Positions 26,275-47,153 of a stretch of DNA of 64,000 nt are shown piece by piece. Positions within the stretch are counted from its first letter, which is position 1, and the number at the start of each line of letters is the position of its first letter. Below the pieces are notes generated by a model that was not told the DNA's origin, ran no database searches, and was given only the letters and a program-made list of their open reading frames with translations. Source of the stretch: a bacterium (GTDB lineage: Bacteria; Patescibacteriota; Dojkabacteria; JAKAPS01; JAJZLI01). The position numbers and the translations under genes are program-made. The stretch covers positions 67,412 to 131,411 of the forward strand of contig JAJZIL010000001.1 of NCBI GenBank assembly GCA_021810605.1, written 5' to 3'.

Positions 26275-26834
26275 TGTATATATAGGTCTAGTGTAATAGA
26301 TGTATTTACTAAATTACTAACTCCGCCTTTTTGAGAAGTCATATTAATCATTATTATGTTTGAAAAATAATAGGAATTTTCTAACATTCGGATATATTCA
26401 GTTGTTCCTTGGAATGTTCCTGTTATATTTAAACTTACTGATAATGTTTTTCCAGCAGAAGTTGGTGTTGCAGAAGTTCCGGATCCTAGTTCTATTGATT
26501 GACTTGATACTGTTGCAGATCCAAATGCTATTTGAGCACTTACTCCTGTGATCTGTGCTATTATATTTTCTTGATTAACCCAATTACTTATTGAATTTTG
26601 AGAGATTAGAGTATTATATAGAAAATTTACTTTTTGGGCATATTGTTGTTTTTGATAAAGTAATGTTTGTTCTTCTAAATCTTTTTGTTTTATTGTAGAT
26701 AAAGTTACATTCAAAGATCTTTTACTGGTTCTAGTTTGAATGTATATATTATAGCTAAGGTATAAAGCATAGATTATTACTATTGATATAAGAAGATATA
26801 TTATATATTTTTTATATTCTTTATTTACTTTCAT
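26271..26834 (-). CDS. PilO-like type IV pilus assembly protein (TM anchor plus coiled coil)
   Basis: N-terminal TM (IIYLLISIVIIYALYLSY) then coiled-coil segment; position after the PilM-PilN gene. Confidence 0.45.
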   Translation of the reverse strand: MKVNKEYKKYIIYLLISIVIIYALYLSYNIYIQTRTSKRSLNVTLSTIKQKDLEEQTLLYQKQQYAQKVNFLYNTLISQNSISNWVNQENIIAQITGVSAQIAFGSATVSSQSIELGSGTSATPTSAGKTLSVSLNITGTFQGTTEYIRMLENSYYFSNIIMINMTSQKGGVSNLVNTSITLDLYIQ

Positions 26835-28419: not shown

Positions 28420-28746
28420 AAATTCATATTACATTATTTTTACATTTTAGTTAATGCCTGTATGCATTACATGTACCTATACCAAAAATAGTCTGTAAAA
28501 GAATATAATCTGATTAATACAGAATATACAATATCATATATATTAGTAGATCACATTATCTTCCTATTTCTAATGAATTAGTGTTTCTTTAATTTATATA
28601 AATGTATTAATAGGTTAAAATAGAAGTAATATTTTTTTGGAAGAGCAAAGTCATATAAATACTTATAAAATAGCTTAGGTATATAATTTAGGAAGTACAA
28701 AAGGTATAAATAGAGGATTAGATTATATAACAATTGCTTTATATAA

Positions 28747-29199
28747 TGGCAACTAAATTAGTATAATACTAATCAGGGATGTGATTATTTATTTAAAATA
28801 AATGAAGGTATTGGTGCTATAGTTTGGACATTTAATGAGGAGTATGGAAAAATTAAGTTTCCAAATGGAGCTCAGATGGAAGGAAACAGTTCCTACTATT
28901 ACTAAAAATAATGTATATATTGGATCTACTAGTGTCAAAAGATATTTGATGTATCTGTTTCTACTGGAAAAATCTAGTCTCAGAATGCTGTAGGTCTAAA
29001 TAATAAGCCATTTGTTATATTAGATAGTAATTTGTATTATGATAATGGGTTGGGGAATATCCTTGTATATAATAGACATACAGGAAAGTATCTTGCTGAA
29101 AGAACTACTGGAGGGGAAGTTGCAGTGAGTGGTTTGACCTATTCTAATGGTTTCTTTTATGTAGATAATACTGCTGGAAGATTTTTTATTTTTAAATAG
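28747..29199 (+). pseudogene. decayed PQQ-repeat beta-propeller gene (at least 3 frame disruptions)
   Basis: Three consecutive ORF fragments in different frames with propeller-repeat-like content: GIGAIVWTFNEEYGKIKFPNGAQ..., NNVYIGSTS..., and KPFVILDSNLYYDNGLGNILVYNRHTGKYLAERTTGGEVAVSGLTYSNGFFYVDNTAGRFFIFK. Confidence 0.5.
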
Positions 29200-29205
29200 A
29201 CTACA

Positions 29206-30636: not shown

Positions 30637-31123
30637 ATGTTTTTTTAGTTATAATACCACTTGTACCTACATTAGATTCTGTAATATTTACAAGTATTGT
30701 AGGAGAGATTCCTGTGTTAGCTTCTTCACTAAATGATAAATCATATGTATATATATTTGAAGAAGATATCTGTTCAGGAGTATTATTATCATATTGAGAG
30801 TAAATAATCCCATTTGAAGAATAAAACATAATTTTATCTCCTCCTGAGTCTGTTTGTACTATTAAATCATTAGTTGTAGTATTAGTTGGATTTGGAGTCA
30901 ATACTTGATATCCATCTTCAACTGTTTGAGTTATCTCTTTCATACTTATCCTTATAGTATCATTTGCGTTAGCAATTGTTGTTATTTTATTTTGTGTAGA
31001 TATTAAATCTACAAGTATTGTAGTAGTTACAATAATAATAATCCCTAATATTAGTACATAAAGTATAGTTTCAATAAGTGTTTGTCCATTATTATTATTT
31101 CCCATAATTAAAAGGATTGCCAA
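30605..31123 (-). CDS. pseudopilin (prepilin-type N-terminus)
   Basis: GNNNNGQTLIETILYVLILGIIIIV (G|QTLIE plus hydrophobic helix). Confidence 0.65.
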   Translation of the reverse strand: MAILLIMGNNNNGQTLIETILYVLILGIIIIVTTTILVDLISTQNKITTIANANDTIRISMKEITQTVEDGYQVLTPNPTNTTTNDLIVQTDSGGDKIMFYSSNGIIYSQYDNNTPEQISSSNIYTYDLSFSEEANTGISPTILVNITESNVGTSGIITKKTYETTATQRRQ

Positions 31124-31602
31124 TTAGTTAAATATTCAGTCTCTGAGTAAGAAAAATTTTCTCCAAATGAGTTGAAGGATACATTTGCAGTAACTTCCAT
31201 AGAATTTGTATCAATTGGTTGTGTGGTATCTGTTGTAAATGTATTGGAATTTGATCTATATGCTGGAGCAATTACAACATCAACAGTATACTCATTATAT
31301 GTTTCTGATCCTGGAACAAGTTCCCATCCTTGTACTATGTGGGGTGTAGCATTCGTTGGATTATATTGAAGATAATATTCTCCTGCAACAAGATTTGACC
31401 ATGATTGATTCTGTACTGCATAAAGACTCTCTATTTGTTGTTGTAGTAAATATTTTGCTTCTAATTTTTGTTTTGATATTTCTATCGATTTATATACTAG
31501 TTGTACTGAAAAAAGGGAAGATCCAAAAATTATAGCTATAATAGTTATAGTCAAAAGTAATTCAATAAATGCTTGTCCTTTATTATTAATATACTGCTCC
31601 AT
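31108..31602 (-). CDS. pseudopilin (prepilin-type N-terminus)
   Basis: NNKGQAFIELLLTITIIAIIFG (G|QAFIE plus helix). Confidence 0.65.
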   Translation of the reverse strand: MEQYINNKGQAFIELLLTITIIAIIFGSSLFSVQLVYKSIEISKQKLEAKYLLQQQIESLYAVQNQSWSNLVAGEYYLQYNPTNATPHIVQGWELVPGSETYNEYTVDVVIAPAYRSNSNTFTTDTTQPIDTNSMEVTANVSFNSFGENFSYSETEYLTNWQSF

Positions 31603-32053
31603 TATTATTTATATTCATTAATATAAAATAACTTGAGTTTCCTATATCAAAGGATACTCCAGAGTTAGTAAGTTGTCCATTTACAGAGTTAAATATAATT
31701 GGATTATTTTCTGAAGGGGTAAGATTATAAAGTGTTACCTCAGGAGGAAAATAATATGTATCATTAGCACTATTAGTAGAAGAATAGTTGTTTCCAGGAA
31801 ATAGGGTAATTTGATTAGTTTGGAATTCTATTCCATACTGACTAAATCCTGCAAGATTATCAAGTGCATCATCTTGAGCTTCTTTTATCATTGAATATAC
31901 GTTTTGATTTGCACTATCTACATTTGTATGGGTAAGTAATGTCAGATAAGAGAATCCTATGAGCAATGACATTATACCTAGTATTGTTATTACTATTAAA
32001 ATCTCTATGAGTGTAAATCCTTTATTTTGCTGGTGCATTTCCTCCTGCTCCAC
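31586..32053 (-). CDS. pseudopilin / minor pilin (canonical GFTLIE motif)
   Basis: QNKGFTLIEILIVITILGIMSLL. Confidence 0.75.
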   Translation of the reverse strand: MEQEEMHQQNKGFTLIEILIVITILGIMSLLIGFSYLTLLTHTNVDSANQNVYSMIKEAQDDALDNLAGFSQYGIEFQTNQITLFPGNNYSSTNSANDTYYFPPEVTLYNLTPSENNPIIFNSVNGQLTNSGVSFDIGNSSYFILMNINNNGAVY

Positions 32054-33278
32054 TTGCTGCGGAAGTCCCTGAAGTACTTCCGATACTTCCTGTCATCTGA
32101 TATATTGGTGCTATTACTGAGAGTGCTATCAAAAGGACTCCACCTCCCATAACAAATAACATTAAAGGTTCAATTATTACTGACAGATTTGCTAAAGTAT
32201 CATCTACTTGGTTTTGATAAAATTCTGCAACGGAAAGAAGCATTTCAGAAGTATTCCCAGTTTTATCTCCAACAGCAATCATTCTTGTAGCAAGATTAGG
32301 AAAAAGTTTTGGATATTTTGATAAAGTTGGAGATATTTGATCTCCTCTCTCTACACTAGCTCCTAACTCAATTATGATTTTTTTATATGCTTCATTTGAT
32401 ACAGTATCTTTTACAATAGTAATGGATTGATTTATAGGAATTCCACTTTTAAGAAGATTTCCTAATGTTCTTGAAAAATTTGTTACATTTATTTTTTTTA
32501 TAATCTCTCCTACTATTGGGATTTTTACGGAGATAACATTCCATGCATATTTTGCTTGTGGAAGTCTTAGAAGTGCTCTAAATACAAATATAAGGATAAT
32601 AATTAATATTAATACCTCTAATCCATAATGAGTAAGAATATTAGATAAATCTATCATTATTTGAGTAGGTAGAGGGAGAGATTCTCCACTTCCTTTAAAA
32701 AGACCACTTAACTGAGGGAATACAAAAATTATTAATCCTATTGAAACTATAAGCATTATGCTTACTATGATTGCAGGATACATCAAAGCTCCTATAACTT
32801 TTTTTCTTAAATCATAACTTTTTTGTACTTGATCTTTAATAAGAACTGTGTTTTCAGAAATAGTACCACTAGTCTCTCCAATTTCCATCATTTTTACTAT
32901 CAGTGGTGTAAAGATATAAGGATATTTTTTCATAGTATCAGAGAGCTTATTTCCAGATTCTACATTATATTTTAAATCTTCAATAACAGTTTTAAATACC
33001 TTGGTTTCTGCATCTTGTACAAGGGAGTCAAGTGTATCTGCTAGTGAGAGTCCTGCTGTAAGCATTTTTCCCATATGGTCAAAAAAAAGAAGCTTTTCTA
33101 CTAATTTTACCCTTCCCTTTGTTGCATTCTTTGTCTTATCTTTGCTCTCCTCAATTGAAAGAATTGTAAGATTTTCAGATCTGATGATCTCCATTGCTTC
33201 ATCTTTTCCAGATGCACTAACAGTACCTTTTTTAACATCTCCTTGTAGATCTGTAGCTTCATAAATAAATTCTGCCAT
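32022..33278 (-). CDS. pilC: type IV pilus platform protein PilC (GspF family)
   Basis: 418 aa; N-terminal MAEFIYEATDLQGDVKKGTVSASGKDEAMEIIRSENLTILSIEE typical of PilC/GspF; two repeated 3-TM modules. Confidence 0.85.
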   Translation of the reverse strand: MAEFIYEATDLQGDVKKGTVSASGKDEAMEIIRSENLTILSIEESKDKTKNATKGRVKLVEKLLFFDHMGKMLTAGLSLADTLDSLVQDAETKVFKTVIEDLKYNVESGNKLSDTMKKYPYIFTPLIVKMMEIGETSGTISENTVLIKDQVQKSYDLRKKVIGALMYPAIIVSIMLIVSIGLIIFVFPQLSGLFKGSGESLPLPTQIMIDLSNILTHYGLEVLILIIILIFVFRALLRLPQAKYAWNVISVKIPIVGEIIKKINVTNFSRTLGNLLKSGIPINQSITIVKDTVSNEAYKKIIIELGASVERGDQISPTLSKYPKLFPNLATRMIAVGDKTGNTSEMLLSVAEFYQNQVDDTLANLSVIIEPLMLFVMGGGVLLIALSVIAPIYQMTGSIGSTSGTSAASGAGGNAPAK

Positions 33279-33380
33279 ACTTAAAATATATAGATTTTAG
33301 CTTATAAAAGCAAGTTATTTTTATATGATTAGATGAGTTATAACTTTATGATTAACTCTTATGATATAATTTAAAATTAT

Positions 33381-34019
33381 ATGGATGAGCAAAGTATAGA
33401 GAATATACCAAAAGAGGTTCTGACTGAACAGTATAAACAACTTTTGATAGAGGTAGATTCACTCAAGAAGGATTTATCTGTTAGTCAAGTAAAATTAAAG
33501 GATAATTCTGTACAGATAGAAATTCTTTTAAGACAAATTGATAGGTTAAGACATGATGGAAAAATAGATAAAATGACAAATCTATTTAACAATAATTATC
33601 TTGAAGACAGCTCTGTTGTCTCTGAATTAGAGTCATTATCAAAGAATGGTATAGATTTTGGTATAATTTTTATAGATTTAAATGATCTTAAAAAAATAAA
33701 TGATTCAAAGGGACATAAAGAAGGAGATAAATATATAATTGAATCTTCTAAAGCATTAGTGGAAGTAATTTCTGCTAGAGATACAGTTGTAAGAAAGGGG
33801 GGAGATGAATTTGTAGTTATTGTAAGGCATATTAATTCAGAATATTTACCAAATATAGAAAATACAATTTTAGATAGAATAAAACTATCTTTTTCAGAAA
33901 AGGGTATTAGTGCATCTTTGGGTTTTGCATTATCTTCTGAATGTGGTCATAGTCTAAAGGATACAATAAATTTAGCAGATCAGAGGATGTATATTGTAAA
34001 AAAGGAAGCAAAAAAATAA
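33381..34019 (+). CDS. diguanylate cyclase (GGDEF domain) with N-terminal coiled coil, no sensor domain
   Basis: GIIFIDLNDLKKINDSKGHKEGD ... RKGGDEFVVIV (GGDEF motif present). Confidence 0.8.
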   Translation: MDEQSIENIPKEVLTEQYKQLLIEVDSLKKDLSVSQVKLKDNSVQIEILLRQIDRLRHDGKIDKMTNLFNNNYLEDSSVVSELESLSKNGIDFGIIFIDLNDLKKINDSKGHKEGDKYIIESSKALVEVISARDTVVRKGGDEFVVIVRHINSEYLPNIENTILDRIKLSFSEKGISASLGFALSSECGHSLKDTINLADQRMYIVKKEAKK

Positions 34020-34095
34020 ATATATAAAATACTATATTTGAAGATTTAAATAATTAACTTTATATTTCATATTACTCATAATATATATATGCTAT

Positions 34096-34118
34096 CTGTA
34101 ATAATAGTATTATTACAG
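34096..34118. repeat. perfect 23-bp palindrome CTGTAATAATA-G-TATTATTACAG between the GGDEF gene and ndh
   Basis: Seen directly; followed by aattttatc (possible weak terminator) and about 130 nt upstream of the ndh start (possible operator). Confidence 0.5.
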
Positions 34119-34249
34119 AATTTTATCTAGCAGGAATATCTATTCTAAATATCTAAATTAAATCTACTGTGATAGGAATAACTTCAAATTTGCATTGTAT
34201 TTATAATACTATCATAATAGATAAACATAAATATAAATATAGATATTTT

Positions 34250-35503
34250 ATGCAATTAGATAAGAAATTAAAGAAAATAAAAAGAGTAGTAATACTAGGT
34301 GCTGGTTTTGGTGGAGTGAATCTATATAGATCACTTCATAAATTAGTACATGGAGATAAAGATTGGGAATTTGTAATAATTTCTGATAATAATTATTTCC
34401 TTTTTACACCTCTTATCCATGAAGTTGCAACGGGGTCACTTTTCCCAGAAGATTTAGTTTTTCCAATAAGAGAGAATTTTTCATGCTGTGTAAGAGAGGT
34501 AATTGTAGATAAGGTTATATCAATTGATGCATATAAAAAAAATGTTATTCTTAAAAATGAAAAGATTTCTTTTGATTATTTAGTTATATCAACAGGTGCT
34601 TCTGTAAATTATTGGGGGATTGAAGGAGCTTTAGAAAATTCAATTCCTCTTTATGATATAAAAGATGCTATAAAATTAAAAAATAATCTTATTTCTGTTT
34701 TTGAAAAGGCTAATGAAGTTAAACAGAAGAGTATAAAAATAGTTATTGTTGGTGGAGGGGCTACTGGGATAGAGCTTGCTACAGAAATAGTGGAATTTGT
34801 GGAGAGAATGAAGCCATTTTATGAAAATCTGAAAATATTAGATACAAAGATAAAGGTTGAGATACTTAATTCTTCTACAAAATTTATCCCTAATTTCCCG
34901 GATAAAGTAAGAAAGAAAATATTATCTATTTTATCAAGAGAGGATAATGATCTTTCAATACTTCTAGATTCTAAAGTCATGAAAGTAGATAGTAGTAGTG
35001 TATATCTTTTAGATAAGAGGAAGTTAGATTATGATCTTCTAGTTTGGGCTGCGGGTGTAAAACCTAATACTCCAAAGATTAATATTGATAGTGTAAAAAC
35101 TGATGAAAGAATTAAAGTAGATAAATATTTTAATATTAAACCATTTAAAAATATATTTGCTATTGGAGATGTTGCTGATTTTAAGGATATTAACGGGAAC
35201 TCTCTACCTCAATTTGCTCAAATAGCAGAAGAAGAGGGTAAGATTTGTGCAGAAAATATATATAGGATATCTAAAAAACTATCACCTATATCTTTTGAGT
35301 ATAAAGGAAAAGGGTTGCTACTTTCATTAGGACGTAATAATGCTATAGTGTCTTTAAAAAATGTAATATTTACAGGAAAAACTGCTTGGATACTATGGAA
35401 ATTTATATATTTAGGGTTAATGTTTGGAAAAGGAACTAGATTAAGGGTATTTAGTCAATGGATTATAAATAGTTTATCTCCTAGGAATATCTCTAAGATT
35501 TAG
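34250..35503 (+). CDS. ndh: type II NADH dehydrogenase / FAD-dependent pyridine nucleotide-disulfide oxidoreductase
   Basis: Two Rossmann motifs VVILGAGFGG and IVIVGGGATGIELA; start placed at the internal Met (MQLDKK...) rather than the track start at 34169. Confidence 0.75.
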   Translation: MQLDKKLKKIKRVVILGAGFGGVNLYRSLHKLVHGDKDWEFVIISDNNYFLFTPLIHEVATGSLFPEDLVFPIRENFSCCVREVIVDKVISIDAYKKNVILKNEKISFDYLVISTGASVNYWGIEGALENSIPLYDIKDAIKLKNNLISVFEKANEVKQKSIKIVIVGGGATGIELATEIVEFVERMKPFYENLKILDTKIKVEILNSSTKFIPNFPDKVRKKILSILSREDNDLSILLDSKVMKVDSSSVYLLDKRKLDYDLLVWAAGVKPNTPKINIDSVKTDERIKVDKYFNIKPFKNIFAIGDVADFKDINGNSLPQFAQIAEEEGKICAENIYRISKKLSPISFEYKGKGLLLSLGRNNAIVSLKNVIFTGKTAWILWKFIYLGLMFGKGTRLRVFSQWIINSLSPRNISKI

Positions 35504-35614
35504 AGAAAATCTCAATATTATACACTTTAGTATAATAATTTGTACTCAATATTTTATGCTTTAATATTTAAATTTGGTTGCAAAATTTTATTACTTAGTG
35601 CACAATATAAGTAT

Positions 35615-37039
35615 ATGGATGATAATCTTATACGGAAAACACTAGATTTTTATAATCCATTTTGGAGAAATATTTTATCTATAGAAAATACACCATTATA
35701 TAGAAGGGATATATATGACAGTATATTTATATCAGTTAAAGAGATAAAACAGATAATTTCAATAACTGGACCAAGAAGAGTGGGAAAGACGACTATACTT
35801 CGTCAGATCATATTTGATCTAATTAAAGAGAATGATGTAAGTCCACTAGATATAATATATATATCAATGGATGATCCATATATATACTCTAATTCTTCAG
35901 ATCCAATTTTTTTTGATAGACTAATCGAAGTATATGAAAAATATATCTTAAGAGAAAAAATACAAAATAGAACTATATATTTCCTTATAGATGAGATTCA
36001 TAAATTTAAAGATTGGCAACTATTTTTAAAGAAATACTATGATAGAGGTATAAATATAAAATTTATTATATCAGGGTCAGTTGAACAGTCTATATTGGGA
36101 AAAAGTAAGGAATCTTTAGCAGGAAGAATCAAGAATTTTAAAGTATATACTTTTTCATTTTATGAGTATATATACTATAAACTTTCTTTTGATGATAAAG
36201 TCGATATACTGAAAAAAGAGAATATATTAAAGCTAATTTTAAAAATTCATGATTTAAAAAAGAATATTTTTATAAATCCACTAATTTTTTTTGCTGATCT
36301 AGACCAAATACTTCCAGATTTTATCTTTTATGAAGATGAAATATTTAGATACTTTTATGAATATCTAATTATAGGAGGATTTATAGAGAGTTGGAGTATT
36401 GATAGTAAGGATATGCAATATGAATATCTATATCAAACACAAATTGAAAAGGTATTGCTACAGGATATATATATATTAGAAGATATTAAAAATACAAAAA
36501 TTCTTGCAACTATGTTTTTTAAATTTTCTGAAAATTTTGCTTCAGAATTTAGTCTTAACTCATTAGTAAAAGATATTGGAGTACATAGAGATACAATTGA
36601 AAGATATATTACTCTTCTTAAAGATTCTAATTTGATTTTTTCACTTTCTAAATATGGAGAGAATGCTAGTAAAATATCTAATATTAAAATATTTTTAGTT
36701 GATATTGGTATAAGAAATAGTATATTAAAAATAAAAGAAGAAGAGATTGTAGGAAATAAGATATTATTTCTTAAATATATTGAAAACCTATCTTTACTTT
36801 CAATAATACGTTATTCAAATGCATTAGGTATAAACTACTATAGAGAAAGAGAGAAAGAAATTAATTTTATACTTAATTATTCTTCTGGTAATATTGCTAT
36901 AAACCTAGATAATATGAAGAAAAGTCTTTTTGATAAATTTAAATTTGATTATATATTTAATCTTATTGGAGAAACTCAGATAAAAAAGGATAGTAATATA
37001 ATATCAATACCATATATAATATTTCTTCTTTCTTTGTAA
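35615..37039 (+). CDS. AAA+ ATPase of the AAA_14/DUF4143 family
   Basis: Walker A ITGPRRVGKTT; Walker B FLIDEIH; architecture typical of DUF4143-containing ATPases; start placed at the internal Met (MDDNLIRK...). Confidence 0.65.
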   Translation: MDDNLIRKTLDFYNPFWRNILSIENTPLYRRDIYDSIFISVKEIKQIISITGPRRVGKTTILRQIIFDLIKENDVSPLDIIYISMDDPYIYSNSSDPIFFDRLIEVYEKYILREKIQNRTIYFLIDEIHKFKDWQLFLKKYYDRGINIKFIISGSVEQSILGKSKESLAGRIKNFKVYTFSFYEYIYYKLSFDDKVDILKKENILKLILKIHDLKKNIFINPLIFFADLDQILPDFIFYEDEIFRYFYEYLIIGGFIESWSIDSKDMQYEYLYQTQIEKVLLQDIYILEDIKNTKILATMFFKFSENFASEFSLNSLVKDIGVHRDTIERYITLLKDSNLIFSLSKYGENASKISNIKIFLVDIGIRNSILKIKEEEIVGNKILFLKYIENLSLLSIIRYSNALGINYYREREKEINFILNYSSGNIAINLDNMKKSLFDKFKFDYIFNLIGETQIKKDSNIISIPYIIFLLSL

Positions 37040-37074
37040 ATTATTTGAATAGAGCATACTTTCTTAATATAAAA

Positions 37075-38745
37075 TCACTCTTTTACTACTCTTAGTACCT
37101 CTTCTATTGATGTGAGTCCTTCAGATGCTTTTGCAAGGCCATCTTCTATCATAAGACTCATACCATTTGATTGAGCTATTTTTTGAATAACCTCTCCACT
37201 TTCTTTTTTTGTAATTAATTCTTTTATTTTATCGTTAATTTCTAATATCTCATATATACCAATCCTACCTTTATATCCATTATTACAGTATTCACAACCT
37301 ACTGCTTTATAATATTTATTATTTGTAACTTTTTTACCAACTCCTTTTTTTTCATATTGTTCAGAGAGGATACTTAACTCTTTTGCATCCATTTTATATT
37401 CTTTTTTACACGTATTACATAATTTTCTTACTAACCTTTGTGCAATAACAACATTAAGAGTTGAGGCTACAAGAAAAGATTCTACCTGCATATCTATAAG
37501 TCTAGGAATTGCCCCAGATGCATCATTGGTATGTAGAGTAGATAGAACTAAATGTCCAGTCATTGCAGCATTAATAGCTATGTCTGCAGTTTCATTATCT
37601 CTAATTTCTCCAACCATGATAATATCAGGGTCTTGTCTTAAAAAAGATCTTAATCCATTTGCAAAGGTCAGTCCAATGTTGGCAGAGACCTGAGTTTGGT
37701 TGACTCTAGGCATAGTATATTCAATTGGATCTTCAACTGTATTAATATTAACTTCTGGTGTATTTAGCTGAGATAATATAGTATAGAGAGTTGTACTTTT
37801 TCCTGATCCAGTAGGTCCTGTTACTAATATCATTCCAACAGTTCTTTTTATAGAATCTTTAATTTTTTCTAAATCTCCTCCTCTAAAACCAAGTGCTTCT
37901 AGATTATATGATTTAGCATTATCTTCTAAAAGTCTTGTTACTACAACCTCTCCAAAATATACAGGCATAGTAGATACTCTAAAAGATATCTCTTGGTCAT
38001 TAACTAGTGTTTTAAATCTTCCATCTTGAGGAAGTCTATGTTCATCAATTTTAAGGTTAGATAATATTTTAATTCTTGCAACAACTGCCTTATGTATATC
38101 TAATGAATATGTTGCTTGATCGTGTAGTATTCCATCTATTCTATATCTTATAACAGCTCTTTCCTCTAAAGGTTCTAGATGTATATCAGATGCACCCATT
38201 GTTTTTGCGTATTCTAATATAGTATTCGTAATATTAATTATAGGTAATGCCTCAGTATCTTCACTTTTTACATCTTTGGACTCTTTCTCATTTTTTTCTA
38301 TAATATTTTTTAATTCTTCTTTTATTGAAGTTTTATATAATTTTAATCCTTCAAAAAAAGATGTCTCTGTTATAAAGTAAGGATCAATTATATAACCAGT
38401 TCCTTTTTTTAGAAACTCTATTGTATTAATATCTCTTGGATTAGTCATTCCTATCTTTAAAGTAGATTCACTCTTATCAAATGCTATAATTTTTTTCTCA
38501 ATAGCAATTTTTTCTGGGATTATTTTTACTGTTTCAGGATTAATTGTTTTATGAATTAGCGATGTATGTGGGATTGAGTACTCTTTAGTAATCAAATTTC
38601 CTAATTCTTCCTCTGTTATAAGGTTACTACCTATGACTAATTCTTCAATAGAACTTGAAATTTGCTTAGATTTCTCTTCTAATTTCTCATACTCCTCTTT
38701 ACTGGTATAATTATTTTTTATAAGAAGTTCTTTGATATCCATCAC
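37075..38745 (-). CDS. pilB: type IV pilus assembly ATPase PilB (GspE family)
   Basis: Walker A VTGPTGSGKSTT, Walker B MVGEIRD, His box LVLSTLHTN, C-terminal tetracysteine CNTC...CEYC. Confidence 0.9.
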   Translation of the reverse strand: MMDIKELLIKNNYTSKEEYEKLEEKSKQISSSIEELVIGSNLITEEELGNLITKEYSIPHTSLIHKTINPETVKIIPEKIAIEKKIIAFDKSESTLKIGMTNPRDINTIEFLKKGTGYIIDPYFITETSFFEGLKLYKTSIKEELKNIIEKNEKESKDVKSEDTEALPIINITNTILEYAKTMGASDIHLEPLEERAVIRYRIDGILHDQATYSLDIHKAVVARIKILSNLKIDEHRLPQDGRFKTLVNDQEISFRVSTMPVYFGEVVVTRLLEDNAKSYNLEALGFRGGDLEKIKDSIKRTVGMILVTGPTGSGKSTTLYTILSQLNTPEVNINTVEDPIEYTMPRVNQTQVSANIGLTFANGLRSFLRQDPDIIMVGEIRDNETADIAINAAMTGHLVLSTLHTNDASGAIPRLIDMQVESFLVASTLNVVIAQRLVRKLCNTCKKEYKMDAKELSILSEQYEKKGVGKKVTNNKYYKAVGCEYCNNGYKGRIGIYEILEINDKIKELITKKESGEVIQKIAQSNGMSLMIEDGLAKASEGLTSIEEVLRVVKE

Positions 38746-40173
38746 TTATTCGTTTGGAGGGACTGTGTAATTGCCATTCGTTATCTTTATGAGTAGAGAC
38801 AATACCTCACTTTGTGCTTGAGAAAGAGTAATCTTTCCTGATATTACTGTATCAAATATATTTGATACAGCTCTGTAATCACCTATTTTCCAAGATTTTG
38901 AACTTGGAGCCATTTGTATAAATGGAATCATATATTTATATTGTGTAGCAAGATTAGCCATATCTACTCTAGGAAATATTTCTCCAACAACTTCATTATT
39001 TTTAAGCTCATTATTATATAGTTGTTGTAGTACACTTTTAGAGTCTAAGTACCTTACAAATTGCCAAGCTGCTGTTGGATGTTGAGAGTATTTAGTAACA
39101 GCCTTTGCAAAATATAAAGAAAGATTTACAGTTTTTCCTGGTAATTGTGGTGGTGTAGCTACTCCTAAATCAATATTGGGATTTAATTTTAATATATTTT
39201 GTATTTCCCAAGATGGTTCAAAAACCATAGCAACTGAACCTCCAGCAAATGCAGATACAGAGTTAGGAAAAGTAGCTTCCCATCCATCTTCTGCAGCAAT
39301 AGAATTATATAGATTTAGTGCTTCTTGACCATTTTGCCCATTTGCAAAAGTTACTGCACTAGAAGATAGCATACTAGTATTATTTATAAACATTAAATAG
39401 GTGAGGATGTTATAGGCATTATTTATATTAGAGGTATTAGTACCTATATCTACTGCAGCTTGAGTTACATTTCCATTACTATCTTTTACTACTAGTTTAG
39501 GTATTTGAGATACAAATGTATTTATATTTTCAGAAGGTGCAGATAACCCAGCTTTTGCAAATTCAGTTTTATTATATAATAAGGCTAATCCATCATAATT
39601 TTCAGGTAATGCATAAATCTTTCCTTGACTAGTAAGGTCATTTACAGCTGTTGTATAGAAAAGATTCTGGAATTGAGACATATCTATTACAGATGAAGGA
39701 GCAGGTGATAGGAATTTTTGATATATAGGAAGATAGGTATTTCCAATAGGAACTATATCAGGTTCATTTATCCCAGAAGAGAGTTTATTAAAAAGAGAAC
39801 TTTCATAATAAGTAGATGGGACTAATGTATATTGTATTTTTATTCCAGGATGAAGTTTTTCATATTCTTTTATAACCGGCTCATAAACACTCGCAGGTTG
39901 TCTTATTCCCCACATAGTTAGAGTTATATTATTATATTGAGTATTAACTTTTCTGTATTCTAAATAATATATTACTAATGATCCTATGATAAGTATTAGT
40001 ACAAAAGATATTATTCCTATATATATTAATCTTTTCTTTTTTCTTCTAATTTCATTAATCTCTACAAATGTATTATCTGTCAAAGCATTTTGAGAATCAT
40101 TAGATATGACATCCTCTTTTTTAGGCTCAGGTGTCTGAGTAGGAGTATTTGTATTCTGATTGTTATCTTGCAT
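38746..40173 (-). CDS. membrane-anchored extracellular solute-binding protein (SBP family 1-like), orphan
   Basis: N-terminal TM, then LTMWGIRQPASVYEPVIKEYEKLHPGIKIQYTLVPSTYYESSL typical of sugar-type SBPs; no permease or ATPase genes adjacent. Confidence 0.55.
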   Translation of the reverse strand: MQDNNQNTNTPTQTPEPKKEDVISNDSQNALTDNTFVEINEIRRKKKRLIYIGIISFVLILIIGSLVIYYLEYRKVNTQYNNITLTMWGIRQPASVYEPVIKEYEKLHPGIKIQYTLVPSTYYESSLFNKLSSGINEPDIVPIGNTYLPIYQKFLSPAPSSVIDMSQFQNLFYTTAVNDLTSQGKIYALPENYDGLALLYNKTEFAKAGLSAPSENINTFVSQIPKLVVKDSNGNVTQAAVDIGTNTSNINNAYNILTYLMFINNTSMLSSSAVTFANGQNGQEALNLYNSIAAEDGWEATFPNSVSAFAGGSVAMVFEPSWEIQNILKLNPNIDLGVATPPQLPGKTVNLSLYFAKAVTKYSQHPTAAWQFVRYLDSKSVLQQLYNNELKNNEVVGEIFPRVDMANLATQYKYMIPFIQMAPSSKSWKIGDYRAVSNIFDTVISGKITLSQAQSEVLSLLIKITNGNYTVPPNE

Positions 40174-41122: not shown

Positions 41123-43189
41123 ATGGAGAATACTGAAAATGCGCATGCAGTACCACAAAATATAATGAGTGTCGAGTTCAAATTGATAGGAGATTTGTCT
41201 TTGAAACAATTTGTTTTTATAGCTGTTCCTCTGACACTAGGTTTTATAATGTATGTTTTTCATGTAAATAATTATATAACAATTGTATTTACTGGTTTTT
41301 TACTTCTAATAGCACTATTTATAGATTTTGTTCCTGTAGATGATAGACCATTAGATGATTTAATAGTAAATTTTTTAATTGCAATTAAAAACCCAACACA
41401 AAGAGTTTGGAGAAAAAATCCAGAATTTCCAAATATACTTAAAATTCCTAAAATATTAATGCCACAAGAAAAAAAGGATAGTGAAATTGCTACATTTATG
41501 TATCAATCTCCAATAGATAGTAATCTTAATTCACCTTCATCTTCAGATGCTTCGAAATTTTTAGATCAAAGAGAGAAAATTCTTATTGATAATATAGATA
41601 AATTAAATGATTCTCTCAATTCTACACCATCTGGAAACTCAATGGTATCTCCTTCTATTAATAATAATATTCCTTCTTCAGGGATGAATATAAATCCTCC
41701 TTTTATAAATCCATCAGGGAATAATATTAATTCTAATAATCCTCAGAAAGATGAAGTTAATCAATCACAAAATGTAGGAATGGGAACTGGGAATACGAGT
41801 TCGAATATATCATCTCAAAATTTAGGGAATAATAATTCTCCATTTGTTAATAATATTGGAGTAGACCAAAATTTATCGAAATCATCCTCTTTTTCTAATA
41901 ACAATAGTGTAAATGTATTGGAACCTCTAAGAAAACCAGATCCAAAAGATTTCTATAAAAAGTCTTCTGAAGATAATATTGAACATCCTATAAACACTGC
42001 AGTTTTTAATACAGGAAGTATTCCTACAGTTGATCCTAATATTAATCCTCAGAATCCATTTAATTCTGGAGTAGGGAATATTAGTTCAAATTTTGTTCCT
42101 AATACTCCACCTATAACAAATCCTAATATGGGAGTACCTCAAATGAATATTCCAAAAGTAGATAAGAATTATATTAATCCTAATAACAACCCTCCTATAC
42201 AAAATGAAATTAATAACTTCTCTCAACAACCAAGTGTAAATTTGCCACCTATACAACCAGATACAAATATTTCTCAGGGGCAGAATACTGTTCAATCTCT
42301 AACTCAAACAACAGTATCTACTTCATTTGATAGTAATTTAAGTGAACCTCCTGATACTTCGAGTGTGTCAGTAGATACAAATGCTATTCCTCATTCTTAT
42401 GATTATCTATCTTCCTCACCTTCAGAGACTCCTAAAATAGATGAAAATATTGTTAGTCAAACTGTAAATACTAATAAAACTCTTGATCCAGATATTGATA
42501 TAAAAAAAATACTTGAGAAACTAGAAAAACTTGAGAAAGAAAATGATAAGTTAAAAAAACAAGTTGATGAGCAAAATGAAAAAATTGATATAGCTCAAGA
42601 AGTCATAGATCAAAAAAATAGACAAGATGAAATTAATGTATCTAACGTATCCTCGGAGACTCCTTCTCCAAGTCCACAAGATGATATTTCTAATACATTG
42701 GGTATTAATCCTGTATTTGAAAATAATTCTATTCAACCTAGTGTAGATACTACAATTTTAGATTCTAAGAATCAGAAGGAAATTCCTTCTGAAAATAACT
42801 TAAGTTCCTCTATGACTAATCTTACATCACAATCTAATGTATCTACTCAGAATCCAGAGACTACAAAGTCTTCTAAGCAAGAGAGTTTGAAGAAAGAAGA
42901 TATTTTAAAATACCTTCCAGATTTTGTCAGTAATCCGAATATAATCTCTGGTGTAGTTATGAAAAATACAGGGCAGATCCTTCCTGATACAGTAATAATA
43001 ATAAAAGATTCTTCACAAAAACCAGTTAGAGCTATTAAGACTAATCAATTAGGACAATTCTTTATTAGGACTCCTCTTTTGTCAGGAACGTATAATTTAG
43101 AAATTGCATATCAAGGTTTGACATTTGATCCTATCTTTATAGAACTTGATGATACTGTTAAGGATCCTATGTTAATTTATTCAAAATAA
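41123..43189 (+). CDS. PrgI/VirB3-like two-TM protein fused to a long low-complexity extracellular region, coiled coil and C-terminal CarboxypepD_reg-like beta-sandwich
   Basis: N-terminus VEFKLIGDLSLKQFVFIAVPLTLGFIMYVF plus second TM (PrgI-family pattern); about 400 aa N/S/P-rich; coiled coil ILEKLEKLEKENDKLKKQVDEQNEKIDIAQE; C-terminal ISGVVMKNTGQILPDTVIIIKD...GQFFIRTPLLSGTYNLEIAYQG. Confidence 0.5.
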   Translation: MENTENAHAVPQNIMSVEFKLIGDLSLKQFVFIAVPLTLGFIMYVFHVNNYITIVFTGFLLLIALFIDFVPVDDRPLDDLIVNFLIAIKNPTQRVWRKNPEFPNILKIPKILMPQEKKDSEIATFMYQSPIDSNLNSPSSSDASKFLDQREKILIDNIDKLNDSLNSTPSGNSMVSPSINNNIPSSGMNINPPFINPSGNNINSNNPQKDEVNQSQNVGMGTGNTSSNISSQNLGNNNSPFVNNIGVDQNLSKSSSFSNNNSVNVLEPLRKPDPKDFYKKSSEDNIEHPINTAVFNTGSIPTVDPNINPQNPFNSGVGNISSNFVPNTPPITNPNMGVPQMNIPKVDKNYINPNNNPPIQNEINNFSQQPSVNLPPIQPDTNISQGQNTVQSLTQTTVSTSFDSNLSEPPDTSSVSVDTNAIPHSYDYLSSSPSETPKIDENIVSQTVNTNKTLDPDIDIKKILEKLEKLEKENDKLKKQVDEQNEKIDIAQEVIDQKNRQDEINVSNVSSETPSPSPQDDISNTLGINPVFENNSIQPSVDTTILDSKNQKEIPSENNLSSSMTNLTSQSNVSTQNPETTKSSKQESLKKEDILKYLPDFVSNPNIISGVVMKNTGQILPDTVIIIKDSSQKPVRAIKTNQLGQFFIRTPLLSGTYNLEIAYQGLTFDPIFIELDDTVKDPMLIYSK

Positions 43190-43201
43190 GATTTAATAGT
43201 T

Positions 43202-43888
43202 ATGGCTTTATTTGGAAATTCAACACAAAATAATACTCCTATTGTAGCAACTACACAGGATCATCTTAATATATATGATATAAAGGATAATTTTTTAATA
43301 TTAAAGGATAAGAATGTATGTGTAGTAATTGAAACTTCTGCAGTAAATTTTTATCTATTATCTGAAGTAGAGCAGAATTCTAAAATATATGCTTTTGCAG
43401 GAATGCTTAATTCTCTTGGTTTTTATATACAGGTAATGATTCATACTGAAAATGTTGATATATCTTCATATCTTAAAAATATAGATGAATATAAGATAAA
43501 ACAGCAAGACCCTAAGATAAAATATCAAATTGATATATATAGAAAATTTGTTAAAGATCTTATTGTTAAAAATAATGTTTTAGATAAGCATTTTTATATT
43601 GTAATTCCATATCTAACACTTATGCCTAAAAAACCTAGTTTTACTAGTAAAATTTTTGGGAAAGAAGATTCTAATTTTGATGTTGACAGTATGATTTCAC
43701 AGTCATCTTCAAGACTTATTCCTAGAAGGGATCATGTTATAAGACAGCTTTCTAGAATGGGATTAAAATCCAAACAGCTTGAGAGTGCTGAACTTATAAA
43801 ACTTTTTTATAATATATATAATCCTATGAATGCTAAAATTAGAGAAGGTTTTGATGAATATACTAGTCCTATTGTAACTTATAAATAA
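43202..43888 (+). CDS. VirB4 N-terminal-segment-like protein (probable first part of a split Gram-positive-type VirB4)
   Basis: IYDIKDNFLILKDKNVCVVIETSAVNFYLLSEVEQNSKIYAFAGMLNSLGFYIQVMIHTENVDISSYL follows the pattern recalled for the extreme N-terminus of PrgJ/TcpF/TraE-type VirB4 ATPases; stops 2 nt before the next ORF in another frame. Confidence 0.4.
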   Translation: MALFGNSTQNNTPIVATTQDHLNIYDIKDNFLILKDKNVCVVIETSAVNFYLLSEVEQNSKIYAFAGMLNSLGFYIQVMIHTENVDISSYLKNIDEYKIKQQDPKIKYQIDIYRKFVKDLIVKNNVLDKHFYIVIPYLTLMPKKPSFTSKIFGKEDSNFDVDSMISQSSSRLIPRRDHVIRQLSRMGLKSKQLESAELIKLFYNIYNPMNAKIREGFDEYTSPIVTYK

Positions 43889-43890
43889 AT

Positions 43891-46401
43891 ATGAAAATAC
43901 CTTTTAATCTTTTAAAAAATAATGATAATAATCAGACAAATAATGTAGTTCAGGGGTCTATCGATAATCCTGTGATTGAAGGGAATCCTAATTATAAGAA
44001 TACAGATCCAGTTTCTTCTTTTGGTATGGGGATAAATTCAATTAAGGATATTATTGCTCCCCCTTCAATAGAGGTTGATTTCTCTCATATAAAAATAGGT
44101 GAGAAATTTTATAGAACATATTTTGTATTAGCATACCCTAGATATGTTGTTCCAAATTGGCTTTCTCCTCTTATCACATTTGAGCATTCAATTGATATAA
44201 GTATGTTTTATTATCCTATTAATGCTGCAGCTGTAATAACTAAACTTAGAAATAAGATTGCTGAGATGGAAGCTTCTACAAATAATCTAATAGAATCTGG
44301 AAAGGTGATGGATCCTAATTTGAAAGTTGCTTTATCAGATGCGAAGGAATTACAAGAAAATTTAGCAAAAGGAGCGGAGAGATACTTTCATTTTGCATTA
44401 TATGTGACAGTAAGGGCTGGTAGTCAAAATGAGTTAGAAGATATTTCTAAAAATTTAGAGTCTACAATGGGTGCAATGTCACTTATTATAAAACCATCAA
44501 CACTTCAGATGGAAGAAGGTTTTTTATCAACACTTCCTTCAGCAAGTGACAAGCTCTATTATACACATAATATGGATACAACATCCATTGCAACAACTTT
44601 TCCTTTTGTATCCTCTGAGCTTACTTCTGATAGAGGTGTACTATATGGTATTAATAAAGCCAATAAAAGTTTAGTAGTATTTGATCGATTTGAATTAGAA
44701 AATGCTAATTCAGTTATTTTTGCAAAGTCAGGTGCAGGAAAAAGTTATTTAGTAAAGTTAGAGGCATTAAGATCTTTAATGTTAGGAACACAGATAATAA
44801 TAGTGGATCCAGAGAGTGAGTATGAACAGTTATGTAAATCTTTAAATGGTGTGTATATAACATTTTCTCAAGATACTGGATCTAAGATAAATCCTTTTGA
44901 TCTATCAGGTGTTTATGAAGAAGGTGAAGATGAATTAAGGTTTAAAATTCTTTCTCTACATGGTCTTTTTAAAGTTATGTTAGGTGAAGATGGAGGAATT
45001 AGTAGTATGGAAAATGCTATTTTAGACAAAGCTTTGATTTTGACATATCGAGATAAAGGCATAACATTTGATCCTGATACACAAACAAAACAACCACCAT
45101 TAATGGAAGATCTATATAAGATTCTTCAATCAATGGAAGAGCAAGAAGCACATTCTTTAGCACAAAGGTTAGAAAAATATGTTAAAGGTTCTGCTTCTGG
45201 AATTTTTGATCAACAGACAAATGTAAATTTAGATAATGACTTTATTGTTTTTTCAATAAAAGATCTTTCAGATGAATTAAGGCCAGTATCTATGTATTTA
45301 ATGTTAGATTTTATATGGACTAGGGTAAAGAAAGAGCTTAGGAGAAGGATTTTTATAATAGATGAAGCCTGGCTTTTAATGAAGTATCCAGATTCAGCAG
45401 AGTTTGTTTATGCAGTAGCAAAAAGAGCAAGGAAATATTATCTTGGACTGACAACTATTTCTCAGGATGTAGATGATTTTCTTTCTAGTGATTATGGAAA
45501 AGCTGTAGTGACTAACTCTTCAATACAGATATTATTGAGACAGTCTCCAACTGCAATGGATCATTTAGCAGAAGTATTTTATCTTTCTGCAGGGGAGAAA
45601 AATTTATTGCTTAGTGCGGAAGTAGGAGAAGGAATATTTTTTGTTGGAGCTAATCATGTGGCAATCCAGGTTCTTTCATCTGAATATGAAAATACTCTTA
45701 TAACAACAAATCCTGAAGAAATATTAAAAATGAGGAGAAGTCAGTCATCTTTAGACAGAATTGTTCCTAATAATGCAATGAATGAGAACTCTAAAGTGTA
45801 CACTGTAAATAATCCAAAAATAGTAGTAAATATGTCTCAAAATAAGTCTAATACAATATCTGATACAGAAGAAAATACAAATTTAAATCCTTTAGAGAAT
45901 GAGAATGTATTATTTGATGATAGTACAGCTCAAGATACTAATAATACAGCTCCAAATATTAATAATTTTGATCTGTCTGGTGATACTGCAGATAATTCTA
46001 GTGCTATTCAAACTCAAAATGAATTTATTGATACTACAGAAAATTTAAATATTCCTCCTGTAGATAATAATTCTAATCCAATTATTACTCAAAATATGGA
46101 GGAAAACGTTTCTAGTACTAATGATCAAATACCTAATCCTAATTTAGGACAAAGTATTAATGCAGTTCCAGATTTTAACACAAGTACTCAAAGTGATAAT
46201 GGTGTAGATATTCCAACTGAATCTATTCCAGATACTGTAGATATTTCATCTACAAATAGACCTAATGTTAATCCTATTACTCAAGATGCTCAAAAAAATC
46301 AGGTAGAAAGCTCTTATGATACAATAGATACCAATTTAGGAACAACATATTCATTTAAGAATTTTACCCAAGAGAATCCTGTGAATAATTCTCCTCAATA
46401 A
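43891..46401 (+). CDS. VirB4/TraC/PrgJ-like type IV secretion ATPase with about 230-aa low-complexity C-terminal tail
   Basis: N-domain FSHIKIGEKFYRTYFVLAYPRYVVPNWLSPLITFEHSIDISMFYYP; Walker A FAKSGAGKSY; Walker B IFIIDEAWLL; RKYYLGLTTISQDVDDF; tail rich in N/T/S/P/D. Confidence 0.8.
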   Translation: MKIPFNLLKNNDNNQTNNVVQGSIDNPVIEGNPNYKNTDPVSSFGMGINSIKDIIAPPSIEVDFSHIKIGEKFYRTYFVLAYPRYVVPNWLSPLITFEHSIDISMFYYPINAAAVITKLRNKIAEMEASTNNLIESGKVMDPNLKVALSDAKELQENLAKGAERYFHFALYVTVRAGSQNELEDISKNLESTMGAMSLIIKPSTLQMEEGFLSTLPSASDKLYYTHNMDTTSIATTFPFVSSELTSDRGVLYGINKANKSLVVFDRFELENANSVIFAKSGAGKSYLVKLEALRSLMLGTQIIIVDPESEYEQLCKSLNGVYITFSQDTGSKINPFDLSGVYEEGEDELRFKILSLHGLFKVMLGEDGGISSMENAILDKALILTYRDKGITFDPDTQTKQPPLMEDLYKILQSMEEQEAHSLAQRLEKYVKGSASGIFDQQTNVNLDNDFIVFSIKDLSDELRPVSMYLMLDFIWTRVKKELRRRIFIIDEAWLLMKYPDSAEFVYAVAKRARKYYLGLTTISQDVDDFLSSDYGKAVVTNSSIQILLRQSPTAMDHLAEVFYLSAGEKNLLLSAEVGEGIFFVGANHVAIQVLSSEYENTLITTNPEEILKMRRSQSSLDRIVPNNAMNENSKVYTVNNPKIVVNMSQNKSNTISDTEENTNLNPLENENVLFDDSTAQDTNNTAPNINNFDLSGDTADNSSAIQTQNEFIDTTENLNIPPVDNNSNPIITQNMEENVSSTNDQIPNPNLGQSINAVPDFNTSTQSDNGVDIPTESIPDTVDISSTNRPNVNPITQDAQKNQVESSYDTIDTNLGTTYSFKNFTQENPVNNSPQ

Positions 46402-46421: not shown

Positions 46422-47153
46422 TTATGATATAAGTTTTGCTTTAACAATAAAACGTTGTGTTCCTATACCTGGAGGGATACAAGTCATAAGAGTAAGATAT
46501 CTTTTTCCTGGAGGATATTGTAATACAGATATATCATTAGGTGATACTACTTGTGTTTGAAATACCTCATATGTATAATTTTCTCCTTTGAATTTAGCAA
46601 ATATTTTATCACCAATTTTAAGTTGTAATATATTCGTAAATATTCCTAAAAAAGATGACGGATATAAATCTGCAAACCATTGTGGGGCAGAGTGCCCATA
46701 AATATATACATTTCCAACCTGTCCTGGAAGGGCAGTTCCCTTCATTTGAGCAAGTGAATTAACTAGAATTTTTTCATATGCATTTGTATTAAATCCATCA
46801 ACTTCAGATTTTACAGGAACATTATTAAGGTTTATGGTAGGAATAGATATATGGAAATAACCTGTATAGGTGTTATTTTTTTGAAAATTTTCTGCTTGTA
46901 TAATTTGTGAAAAATATGAAGCATTTGGATCTGCATTTACTATTTTTGTTTGGTATTGGTGGAATATATTCTGATCTATATAATAGTTGATTATGGGAGA
47001 GATAGCTATTATGACAAAAAACCCACCTACAAAAATTAGAAACATAGCACCATAATTAAATCTTTTTTTTGCTACTCTTGTTCTTTTTCTAGCATTTAAC
47101 TTAATTTTTGGAGGCTTATTATTAATCTTTTTTACATACATATATCTGGACAT
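46422..47153 (-). CDS. sortase family transpeptidase
   Basis: N-terminal TM, conserved His (IYGHSAPQWF), catalytic Cys in LTLMTCIPP (TLxTC) and downstream Arg (QRFIVKAKL). Confidence 0.7.
   Translation of the reverse strand: MSRYMYVKKINNKPPKIKLNARKRTRVAKKRFNYGAMFLIFVGGFFVIIAISPIINYYIDQNIFHQYQTKIVNADPNASYFSQIIQAENFQKNNTYTGYFHISIPTINLNNVPVKSEVDGFNTNAYEKILVNSLAQMKGTALPGQVGNVYIYGHSAPQWFADLYPSSFLGIFTNILQLKIGDKIFAKFKGENYTYEVFQTQVVSPNDISVLQYPPGKRYLTLMTCIPPGIGTQRFIVKAKLIS

Follow-up and report, generated by a model that had tools for sequence, protein, structure and literature searches.

The window analysed here is a stretch of 64,000 nucleotides from a bacterium of the Dojkabacteria (Patescibacteriota), spanning positions 67,412 to 131,411 of contig JAJZIL010000001.1 (GenBank assembly GCA_021810605.1). 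It contains a three-gene operon, of which the first gene encodes a 688 amino acid (aa) protein that begins like PrgI/VirB3, a small membrane subunit of type IV secretion systems (T4SS), and continues into a tail of 580 residues. VirB3 is the least understood core subunit of these systems and is normally a membrane stub of 10–15 kDa with short cytoplasmic extensions (PMC12857230). In the window this subunit is enlarged six-fold, and such a long form is what many of the ultrasmall bacteria of the Candidate Phyla Radiation (CPR) usually have. In the single Patescibacteria strain examined by genetics so far, growth on the host depends on the T4SS (PMC12102498, PMC12857230). Here we investigate what the tail consists of, how widely it is conserved, and on which side of the membrane it is likely to be found.

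A preliminary description, made from the letters of the window, had read the gene as a PrgI/VirB3-like N-terminus followed by a low-complexity linker, a coiled coil and a CarboxypepD_reg-like beta-sandwich, an architecture from which it proposed an extended surface-exposed stalk attached to the secretion core. The open reading frame (ORF) of 688 aa and all of the described parts, with the exception of a set of motif repeats, were found exactly where they had been placed (Table 1).

Table 1. Features of the long-form PrgI/VirB3 gene and of the two genes that follow it (positions within the window; aa, amino acids; TM, transmembrane helix; nt, nucleotides).
Feature	Position	Strand	Basis
Whole gene: long-form PrgI/VirB3, 688 aa plus stop codon	41123..43189	+	ORF list
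PrgI/VirB3 module, aa 1-110	41123..41452	+	Pfam PrgI, conserved residues, AlphaFold2 helices
Parts of the PrgI/VirB3 module: motif HAVPQNIMSVEFKLIGDLSLKQF, TM1 (aa ~30-47), 4-residue loop, TM2 (aa ~52-70), helix 77-89, PTQRVW motif			
Linker 1, aa 111-455: N/S/P-rich, disordered, one conserved helix	41453..42487	+	composition, pLDDT
Conserved helix inside linker 1, aa 143-165	nt 41549-41617	+	D148 and E151 nearly invariant
Coiled-coil helix, aa 456-506, conserved N474 at heptad 'a'	42488..42640	+	AlphaFold2, heptad score, core conservation
Linker 2, aa 507-595: S/N/T-rich, disordered	42641..42907	+	composition, pLDDT, low identity
C-terminal transthyretin-like/CarboxypepD_reg-type beta-sandwich, aa 596-688	42908..43186	+	
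TrsD-like protein, 228 aa, second operon gene	43202..43888	+	NCBIfam VirB4_plasma positions 103-233, E=3.3e-9; TrsD/TraD E=1.8e-5
VirB4 ATPase, 836 aa, third operon gene	43891..46401	+	NCBIfam conju_CD1110, 400 bits (cut-off 325); Pfam P-loop_TraG E=1.4e-29

Only two segments of the protein have a 19-residue Kyte-Doolittle mean above 1.6, at aa ~30–47 and ~52–70 (within aa 25–74). The AlphaFold2 model, generated with an alignment of 38 sequences, has helices at 27–45 and 51–69, which form a hairpin, and further helices at 77–89 and 143–165. The two N-terminal TM helices, found by hydropathy and in the model, and the further helix of the model are the trait of the PrgI/VirB3 family. The helix at 143–165 reaches a predicted local distance difference test (pLDDT) value of 80 at residues 151–160. 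Beyond it the pLDDT is below 50 over most of aa 168–454 and again over aa 510–585; between these regions aa 456–506 form a single long helix (pLDDT 84–88). The last part of the protein, aa 596–688, is a seven-strand beta-sandwich with a pLDDT of 90–97 in the full-length model and of 94–98 when the last 121 residues are predicted alone. The composition changes along the tail, from N 18%, S 16% and P 11% in aa 111–440, through a K/E/I/D-rich segment at aa 441–505, to S 21%, N 12% and T 10% in aa 506–595. No tandem repeat was found in the linker DNA of the ORF. The preliminary description had also reported repeated NPxN and NxxP motifs in the linker, but their numbers are close to compositional expectation: NPxN occurs 3 times against 1.1 expected (reached by 10% of shuffles) and NxxP 11 times against 6.3 (reached by 4%).

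The long helix has the properties of a coiled coil. Its heptad score is 0.43, compared with 0.20 +/- 0.085 for shuffled sequences, of which 1.6% reach the observed value, and there are weak profile matches to the GCN4 and M-protein coiled coils. The a/d core is kept across the family, at A/I/L463, V/I/L467, L470, N474 (31 of 38 sequences), L477 (30 of 38), I/M/L/V481 and L484. The conserved asparagine, N474, is at an 'a' position and is flanked by leucine at 'd' (L470 and L477). A buried asparagine at the 'a' position of a coiled coil favours parallel, in-register dimers. Pfam profiles, AlphaFold2, the heptad score and the relatives thus bear out the architecture first described: a PrgI module at the N-terminus, a well-folded beta-sandwich at the C-terminus, and between them a conserved coiled coil with a disordered linker on either side.

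How secure is the identity of the two ends? Taken alone, the protein matches Pfam PrgI at aa 10–85 (E=2.1e-4) with 22.2 bits, below the gathering threshold of 27, and CarboxypepD_reg at aa 608–665 (E=1.1e-5) with 26.1 bits, below the gathering threshold of 32.3. Both families are matched by 38 of the 38 aligned relatives, with best E-values of 7.9e-11 for PrgI and 2.2e-12 for CarboxypepD_reg; in a wider set of 101 representatives, all 101 match PrgI, as the 38 do, at E<=1e-3, and 70 match CarboxypepD_reg. A WWE3 relative of 33% identity (P0017) matches the whole PrgI model with 38.8 bits, more than PrgI of plasmid pCF10 itself (32.6 bits), and three others also score above the PrgI threshold (P0069, 41 bits; P0168, 42 bits; P0144, 31.6 bits). 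Over aa 1–116 the window protein is 100–35% identical to these relatives. Since they pass where the window protein alone falls below the threshold, its membership of PrgI (PF12666) rests on its close relatives. Precomputed Pfam annotation agrees, with PF13620 in 45 and PF12666 in 44 of 53 homologues of 461–738 aa, some of which are named 'PrgI family protein' by NCBI. A profile of the family aligned by hhalign to the single pCF10 PrgI sequence gave a weak match (probability 5%) in which the signature motif is in register. This N-terminal motif is the most conserved part of the whole protein, with invariant P11, Q12, N13, I14, M15, V17, E18, K20, Q29 and F30. The protein belongs to PrgI/VirB3 by the profile matches of its relatives, by its topology elements and by gene position. 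It does not have the 10–15 kDa size and short extensions of the family and is best called a long-form variant.

At the other end, a Foldseek comparison with the PDB matched the beta-sandwich (E=3.8e-5 to 7e-4) to the transthyretin-like domains of carboxypeptidases N, D and M, to CnaB2 and to pilin domains. The predicted seven strands can be superimposed on solved CarboxypepD_reg/transthyretin-like members, with sequence identity of 26% or less to any solved domain, and the C-terminal profile matches the SdrD B domain (E=3.6e-4). Going by the modelled fold, the domain belongs to the transthyretin-like/CarboxypepD_reg superfamily. Most of its closest structural neighbours are cell-surface or secreted proteins. 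Two more specific identities were considered and ruled out. In this domain, the columns that are invariant or nearly so hold P, N, G, G, F, P/L, G, Y and G only; among them there is no conserved lysine or acidic residue, and no Lys/Asn(Asp)/Glu(Asp) isopeptide triad as would be expected of a CnaB isopeptide domain. The C-terminal end (...DPMLIYSK) is without the LPXTG motif of a sortase substrate, and a sortase gene is found within 6 kb at only 4 of 80 related loci. The preliminary description had named two outcomes that would tell against it, an N-terminus that does not align with PrgI and a disordered C-terminal domain; the N-terminus aligns and the C-terminal domain is confidently predicted to fold.

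Is the fusion a peculiarity of one genome? A phmmer search with aa 1–116 against 1.84 billion cluster representatives gave 1,579 matches at E<=1e-3 and 644 at E<=1e-10. The 139 newly retrieved representatives have a median length of 531 aa, and 120 of them have the C-terminal domain by hidden Markov model, lying within 25 residues of the C-terminus in 119 of the 120. At the species level, with one genome per species, a scan gave 80 loci, which belong to WWE3, Saccharimonadales, genomes labelled Saccharibacteria, Dojkabacteria/WS6, Woykebacteria, Nomurabacteria and unclassified Patescibacteria. At 68 of these a single ORF contains both the PrgI module and the beta domain. The other 12 comprise five ORFs cut by contig ends, three that are apparently interrupted, one ORF of 182 aa on a 2-kb contig (L075), and three genuine short-tail forms of 278–283 aa (L073, L085 and L086). 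The search for the same fusion in other reduced-genome bacteria that the preliminary description had proposed therefore found it in most of the species covered. With 68 of 80 loci and 120 of 139 representatives, the fusion is the normal state of a large Patescibacteria clade. The size that the description had singled out as unusual is so by comparison with a canonical PrgI, such as the 117 aa protein of pCF10; among these bacteria the long form is the rule. Word-indexed searches with shorter queries, the N-terminal 116 aa and a C-terminal profile of 91 aa, returned no alternative architectures (1 and 9 matches, mostly fragments).

An annotation or assembly artefact, in which a short PrgI gene and an unrelated gene for a secreted beta-sandwich protein had been joined by sequencing error or read-through, is effectively refuted already. 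The one observation in its favour is the interrupted reading frame in three related genomes (L009, L058 and L082). Against it, the gene in the window is one uninterrupted ORF in an AT-rich genome (20–32% G+C in the window) with frequent stop codons, the order of the two terminal domains never changes and they share a single frame in every case, and the identical architecture is present in independent assemblies from ENA, NCBI, Logan and JGI in addition to the species-level genomes. A close relative of 98% identity (P0001) is itself present on 7 contigs. In the three interrupted loci the PrgI frame stops early and a gap of 190–990 nt precedes the TrsD-like gene, with tblastn matches continuing in L009 and L058; these stops may be frameshifts, pseudogenes or assembly errors.

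The fusion is visible in database domain annotations and is not discussed in the literature searched, in which we found no paper describing a fusion of PrgI/VirB3 with a carboxypeptidase regulatory-like, transthyretin-like or CnaB domain, or with a C-terminal extension. In the portion of the text of PMC12102498 that was searched, a C-terminal extension, coiled coil or carboxypeptidase-regulatory-like domain of PrgI is not mentioned ('carboxypeptidase', 'coiled' and 'disordered', 0 occurrences).

Different parts of the protein have diverged to very different degrees. Compared with relatives that are 62% identical overall, the N-terminal module is 97% identical and the beta domain 91–92%; linker 1 is 59–65% identical, with indels, the coiled coil 38–50% and linker 2 34–38%. 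Relative to the window protein, P0001 (98% identity) has one 8-aa insertion and seven substitutions, and each of these falls within a linker or at a linker edge. The insertion, PIQPDVTT after aa 375 (window position 42248), is a near-duplicate of the adjacent PIQPDT, and these differences are strain-level length variation of the disordered region. Judged by sequence comparison, both ends of the protein are strongly constrained and the linkers drift and change in length.

This pattern bears on whether the tail does anything specific at all. It may be a passive spacer or assembly aid without a ligand, whose coiled coil and beta-sandwich oligomerise or stabilise PrgI or keep machines apart, and whose linkers have expanded neutrally as low-complexity sequence, as is typical where a genome is AT-rich. 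The fast drift and variable length of the linkers agree with this, as do the range of total length from 278 to ~700 aa across related loci, the short forms without a beta domain that keep their TrsD-VirB4 neighbours, and the low-complexity tails that VirB4 also bears. However, identity in the C-terminal domain stays at 91% against 38–65% in the linkers, this domain keeps its fixed position at the C-terminus, it has been retained at the species level by 68 of 80 strongly reduced genomes, and the core of the coiled coil is conserved including its polar asparagine. Domain identity, fixed position, retention and core conservation together fit a specific function better than drift, and we consider a purely passive tail improbable.

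The neighbouring genes place the protein in a secretion system. Directly downstream of the PrgI gene is the gene for the TrsD-like protein, and VirB4 is encoded two genes downstream, which supports the link to the secretion core that the preliminary description had made. The gaps are 12 nt (PrgI stop to TrsD-like) and 2 nt (TrsD-like to VirB4), with no terminator-like site between the three genes. The VirB4_plasma match of the TrsD-like protein is to the N-terminal part of a mycoplasma-type VirB4 model, and the VirB4 protein covers only positions 186–733 of the conju_CD1110 model. VirB4 is therefore split, and the TrsD-like ORF looks, by its profile matches, like the detached N-terminal domain of a Firmicutes-type VirB4. 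It is far better conserved than the PrgI tail, with ~42% identity to distant relatives and a mean column identity of 57%. The core of VirB4 ends near aa 605 and is followed by a low-complexity tail of ~230 aa rich in N/S/T/D/P (aa ~606–836, 45706–46401). Such VirB4 tails are common in relatives and disordered (median 128 aa, maximum 314), and a subset of them ends in a short motif like F(S/T)LG...G(D/N)(I/V)S(S/T)L.

The order PrgI, TrsD-like, VirB4 is present in 67 related loci. The trio is also present in the 33%-identical WWE3 relative in a different neighbourhood, where it adjoins dnaN, yidC, rnpA and rpmH. In the window dnaA is at 1573–2916, with housekeeping genes and a type IV pilus cluster after it, which puts the operon ~40 kb away from the likely origin of replication. 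The T4SS core published for Patescibacteria, made up of VirB4, TrsD and PrgI/VirB3, is likewise often near the origin (Quinonero-Coronel et al. 2025, PMC12102498), and the operon is this published core. With its VirB4 of the monoderm kind and the TrsD and PrgI genes beside it, the operon conforms to an MPF-FATA-like T4SS. Only VirB4, TrsD, PrgI, VirB6 and VirB2-like proteins are listed as widely distributed in Patescibacteria (PMC12102498). Within 10 kb of the operon there was no sign of a gene for VirB6, a VirB2-like protein or a coupling protein.

Several known systems can be set beside this arrangement. The protein resembles pCF10 PrgI of Enterococcus faecalis and VirB3/TrwM of Gram-negative T4SSs in its N-terminal motif, two-helix hairpin and further helix, in its match to PF12666, which for the protein taken alone is below the gathering threshold, and in the position of its gene upstream of that for VirB4, here with a detached VirB4 N-terminal domain between them. 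It differs from the canonical proteins, which have short cytoplasmic ends, in its tail with a coiled coil and a folded domain. The resemblance to the Patescibacteria T4SS core (PMC12102498) lies in the same three genes close together and in their distance from dnaA. Natural VirB3-VirB4 fusions, for example on Campylobacter plasmids (PMC12624023, PMC12102498), are alike in that the polypeptide runs from the VirB3 C-terminus into a cytoplasmic part, with collinear order of VirB3, VirB4 N-terminal domain and VirB4. In the window, by contrast, the continuation is a linker, a coiled coil and a beta-sandwich, and VirB4 is separate and split into TrsD and core. For the C-terminal domain the comparison set is formed by the CarboxypepD_reg/transthyretin-like/CnaB domains (C-terminal domain of carboxypeptidases D, N and M, SdrD B, pilin CnaB and the N-terminal extension of SusC); unlike these, the domain here is carried by a T4SS membrane subunit, is probably cytoplasmic and has no conserved isopeptide triad. 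The cytoplasmic part of VirB10 (VirB10Cyto) and the VirB8 tails of diderm systems are also flexible segments at the cytoplasmic face of VirB3-VirB4 (PMC11294453). This likeness is a functional analogy only, as there is no sequence or fold relationship and the diderm tails are short peptides that lack any folded head.

On which side of the membrane is the tail? No third membrane helix is present in 184 of 193 family members. The hydrophobic stretches of the nine exceptions lie well within the tail, seven of them in the last 25–85 residues, the region of the beta-sandwich. Two membrane helices and no third leave the N-terminus and the tail together on one side of the membrane. In 192 of 192 members lysine and arginine lie in both flanks and not in the 4-residue loop, with counts of ~2.7 and ~2.9 in the two 25-residue flanks and ~0 in the loop, and lysine or arginine directly flanks TM1 on its N-terminal side. 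The C-terminal end of pCF10 PrgI is strongly basic. VirB3 has been assigned the localisation 'IM/cyto' (inner membrane/cytoplasm), interacts strongly with VirB4 and is sometimes fused to it (PMC12624023). VirB3 binds VirB4 1:1, and in the R388 structure it is counted among the 'cytoplasm-facing IMC protomer components' (IMC, inner membrane complex; PMC11294453). Homology to VirB3/PrgI and the flanking charges together point to the cytoplasm. The tail also takes the place that VirB4 has in natural VirB3-VirB4 fusions, and the gene that comes next encodes the detached VirB4 N-terminal domain. Weighing the conserved topology of the homologous membrane anchor against a prior based on the fold, we put the probability that the tail is located in the cytoplasm at about 65–70%.

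The composition of the linkers does not help in this decision. The cytoplasmic VirB4 carries a similar N/S/T/D/P-rich tail, and low complexity is therefore not diagnostic of location here. A solute-binding protein encoded at 38746–40173 (-) has an N-terminal segment rich in N/T/Q/P ahead of a membrane anchor flanked by KKKR; since this segment is probably cytoplasmic, such a composition is no extracellular marker in this organism. The domains fused to the PrgI module are equally uninformative on topology, because in a scan of 101 representatives for compartment-diagnostic domains only CarboxypepD_reg-clan and coiled-coil-type matches were found.

Could the tail be a surface stalk or adhesin after all? 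For this the hairpin would be inverted relative to canonical VirB3, with the N-terminus and the tail outside. The linkers would cross the cell wall or S-layer, the coiled coil would be the stalk, and the beta-sandwich would contact the envelope or the host cell, standing in for the wall-spanning parts of the VirB8/VirB10 type. The predominance of cell-surface or secreted proteins among the structural neighbours of the C-terminal domain, its match to the SdrD B domain and the resemblance of the S/N/P-rich linkers to wall-spanning regions all favour such a role. So does the short list of widely distributed T4SS proteins in Patescibacteria, and a sortase gene adjoins the operon. That gene, at 46422–47153 (-), is convergent with the end of the VirB4 gene, and the adjacency is probably incidental given how few related loci have one. 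A stalk would, however, require an N-out/C-out hairpin without a signal peptide. It would place outside both the most conserved motif of the family, PQNIMxVEFK, and the helix after TM2, which in VirB3 proteins is the cytoplasmic C-terminal helix. The lysine and arginine next to TM1, with none in the loop, also speak against inversion, and a third membrane helix, by which the tail could be outside with the N-terminus still inside, is missing from every relative. The composition shared with the VirB4 tail, the missing LPXTG motif and the lack of an isopeptide triad among the invariant columns complete the case, and we regard an external stalk as unlikely. The long-form VirB3/PrgI is real and conserved; the surface exposure first proposed for it is unsupported by the membrane topology. 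Neither a 'surface-type' fold nor S/N/P-rich linkers are enough to assign a segment to the cell exterior; it is the topology of the anchor that decides.

The best explanation of the protein is in our view a Patescibacteria long-form VirB3/PrgI whose tail would act in the cytoplasm, at the base of the machine, as a tethered binding arm that dimerises, a reading to which we give a probability of about 0.5. The N-terminal module would keep the VirB3 topology, with both termini cytoplasmic as homology and charge distribution suggest, and would do the canonical VirB3 job of anchoring the VirB4/TrsD ATPase to the membrane, leaving the 580-residue tail to hang into the cytoplasm. There are six VirB3 per machine in the R388 structure, and here too there may be several PrgI copies, all of them with a flexible tail reaching into the cytoplasm. 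Neighbouring tails would be paired by their coiled coils, presumably in parallel because the conserved asparagine at 'a' is typical of in-register dimers. Each pair could then present two beta-sandwich heads next to the ATPase ring or beneath it, on tethers that are long and flexible. The heads would be protein-binding modules that capture a partner, which may be cargo, an adaptor or another part of the machine, and the captured partner would be concentrated at the channel entrance by what amounts to a tethered recruitment arm.

A number of observations weigh against this proposal. Most of the top structural neighbours of the beta-sandwich fold are extracytoplasmic. The flanks are no richer than average in lysine and arginine, and acidic residues prevail in the 10 positions that follow TM2, which makes the charge argument a moderate rather than a strong one. 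Published analyses have not found wall-spanning components of the VirB8/VirB10 type widely in Patescibacteria (PMC12102498), and an external role for some subunit is plausible for that reason. Finally, only some genomes have the candidate for a binding partner, the motif at the end of the VirB4 tail, and the length of PrgI shows no significant correlation with that of the VirB4 tail (rho 0.20, p 0.10). With that restricted occurrence and no correlation of lengths, binding of the beta-sandwich to the G..(I/V)S(S/T)L-like ending of VirB4 is not supported.

What might a cytoplasmic binding arm recruit? One possibility is that the tail is a built-in substrate or adaptor receptor, in which paired heads on tethers of ~330 residues would do the recruiting job of VirD4, the coupling protein of conjugative systems. 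Patescibacteria usually have no t4cp gene close to virB4, and in the only strain tested this gene was reported to be non-essential and PrgI, TrsD and VirB4 to be essential (for PrgI and TrsD, PMC12102498). If this reading were correct, VirB3 would be the cargo-selecting subunit of a T4SS that the tested strain needs for its epibiotic lifestyle. We think it quite unlikely in this specific form. An inverted VirB3 with a tail that reaches the host across the wall would be just as unusual.

Whichever partner it may have, in many CPR lineages with strongly reduced genomes VirB3 bears a conserved coiled coil and a folded domain of a binding type on long tethers. The tail is a concrete and testable handle, as a bait domain for partners and as a region to truncate in genetically tractable Saccharibacteria.

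Two minor observations concern the relatives and the rest of the window. Many relatives (L016, L021 and other WWE3 loci) have a mid-tail motif, ITPDxxxGRxFxNLxPxxGEIxLPxRGE, followed by a charged helix. The clade of the window protein has lost this motif and has retained the helix at aa 143–165 (LDxREKxLIxNIDKLN). The type IV pilus cluster, on the minus strand at 26821–38745, comprises a PilM-PilN fusion (26821–28419), pilin-like genes, PilC (32022–33278), a PilB-type ATPase (37075–38745) and a 476-aa ORF without a Pfam match (29206–30636), with GGDEF, NDH2-type and AAA_14 genes interspersed.

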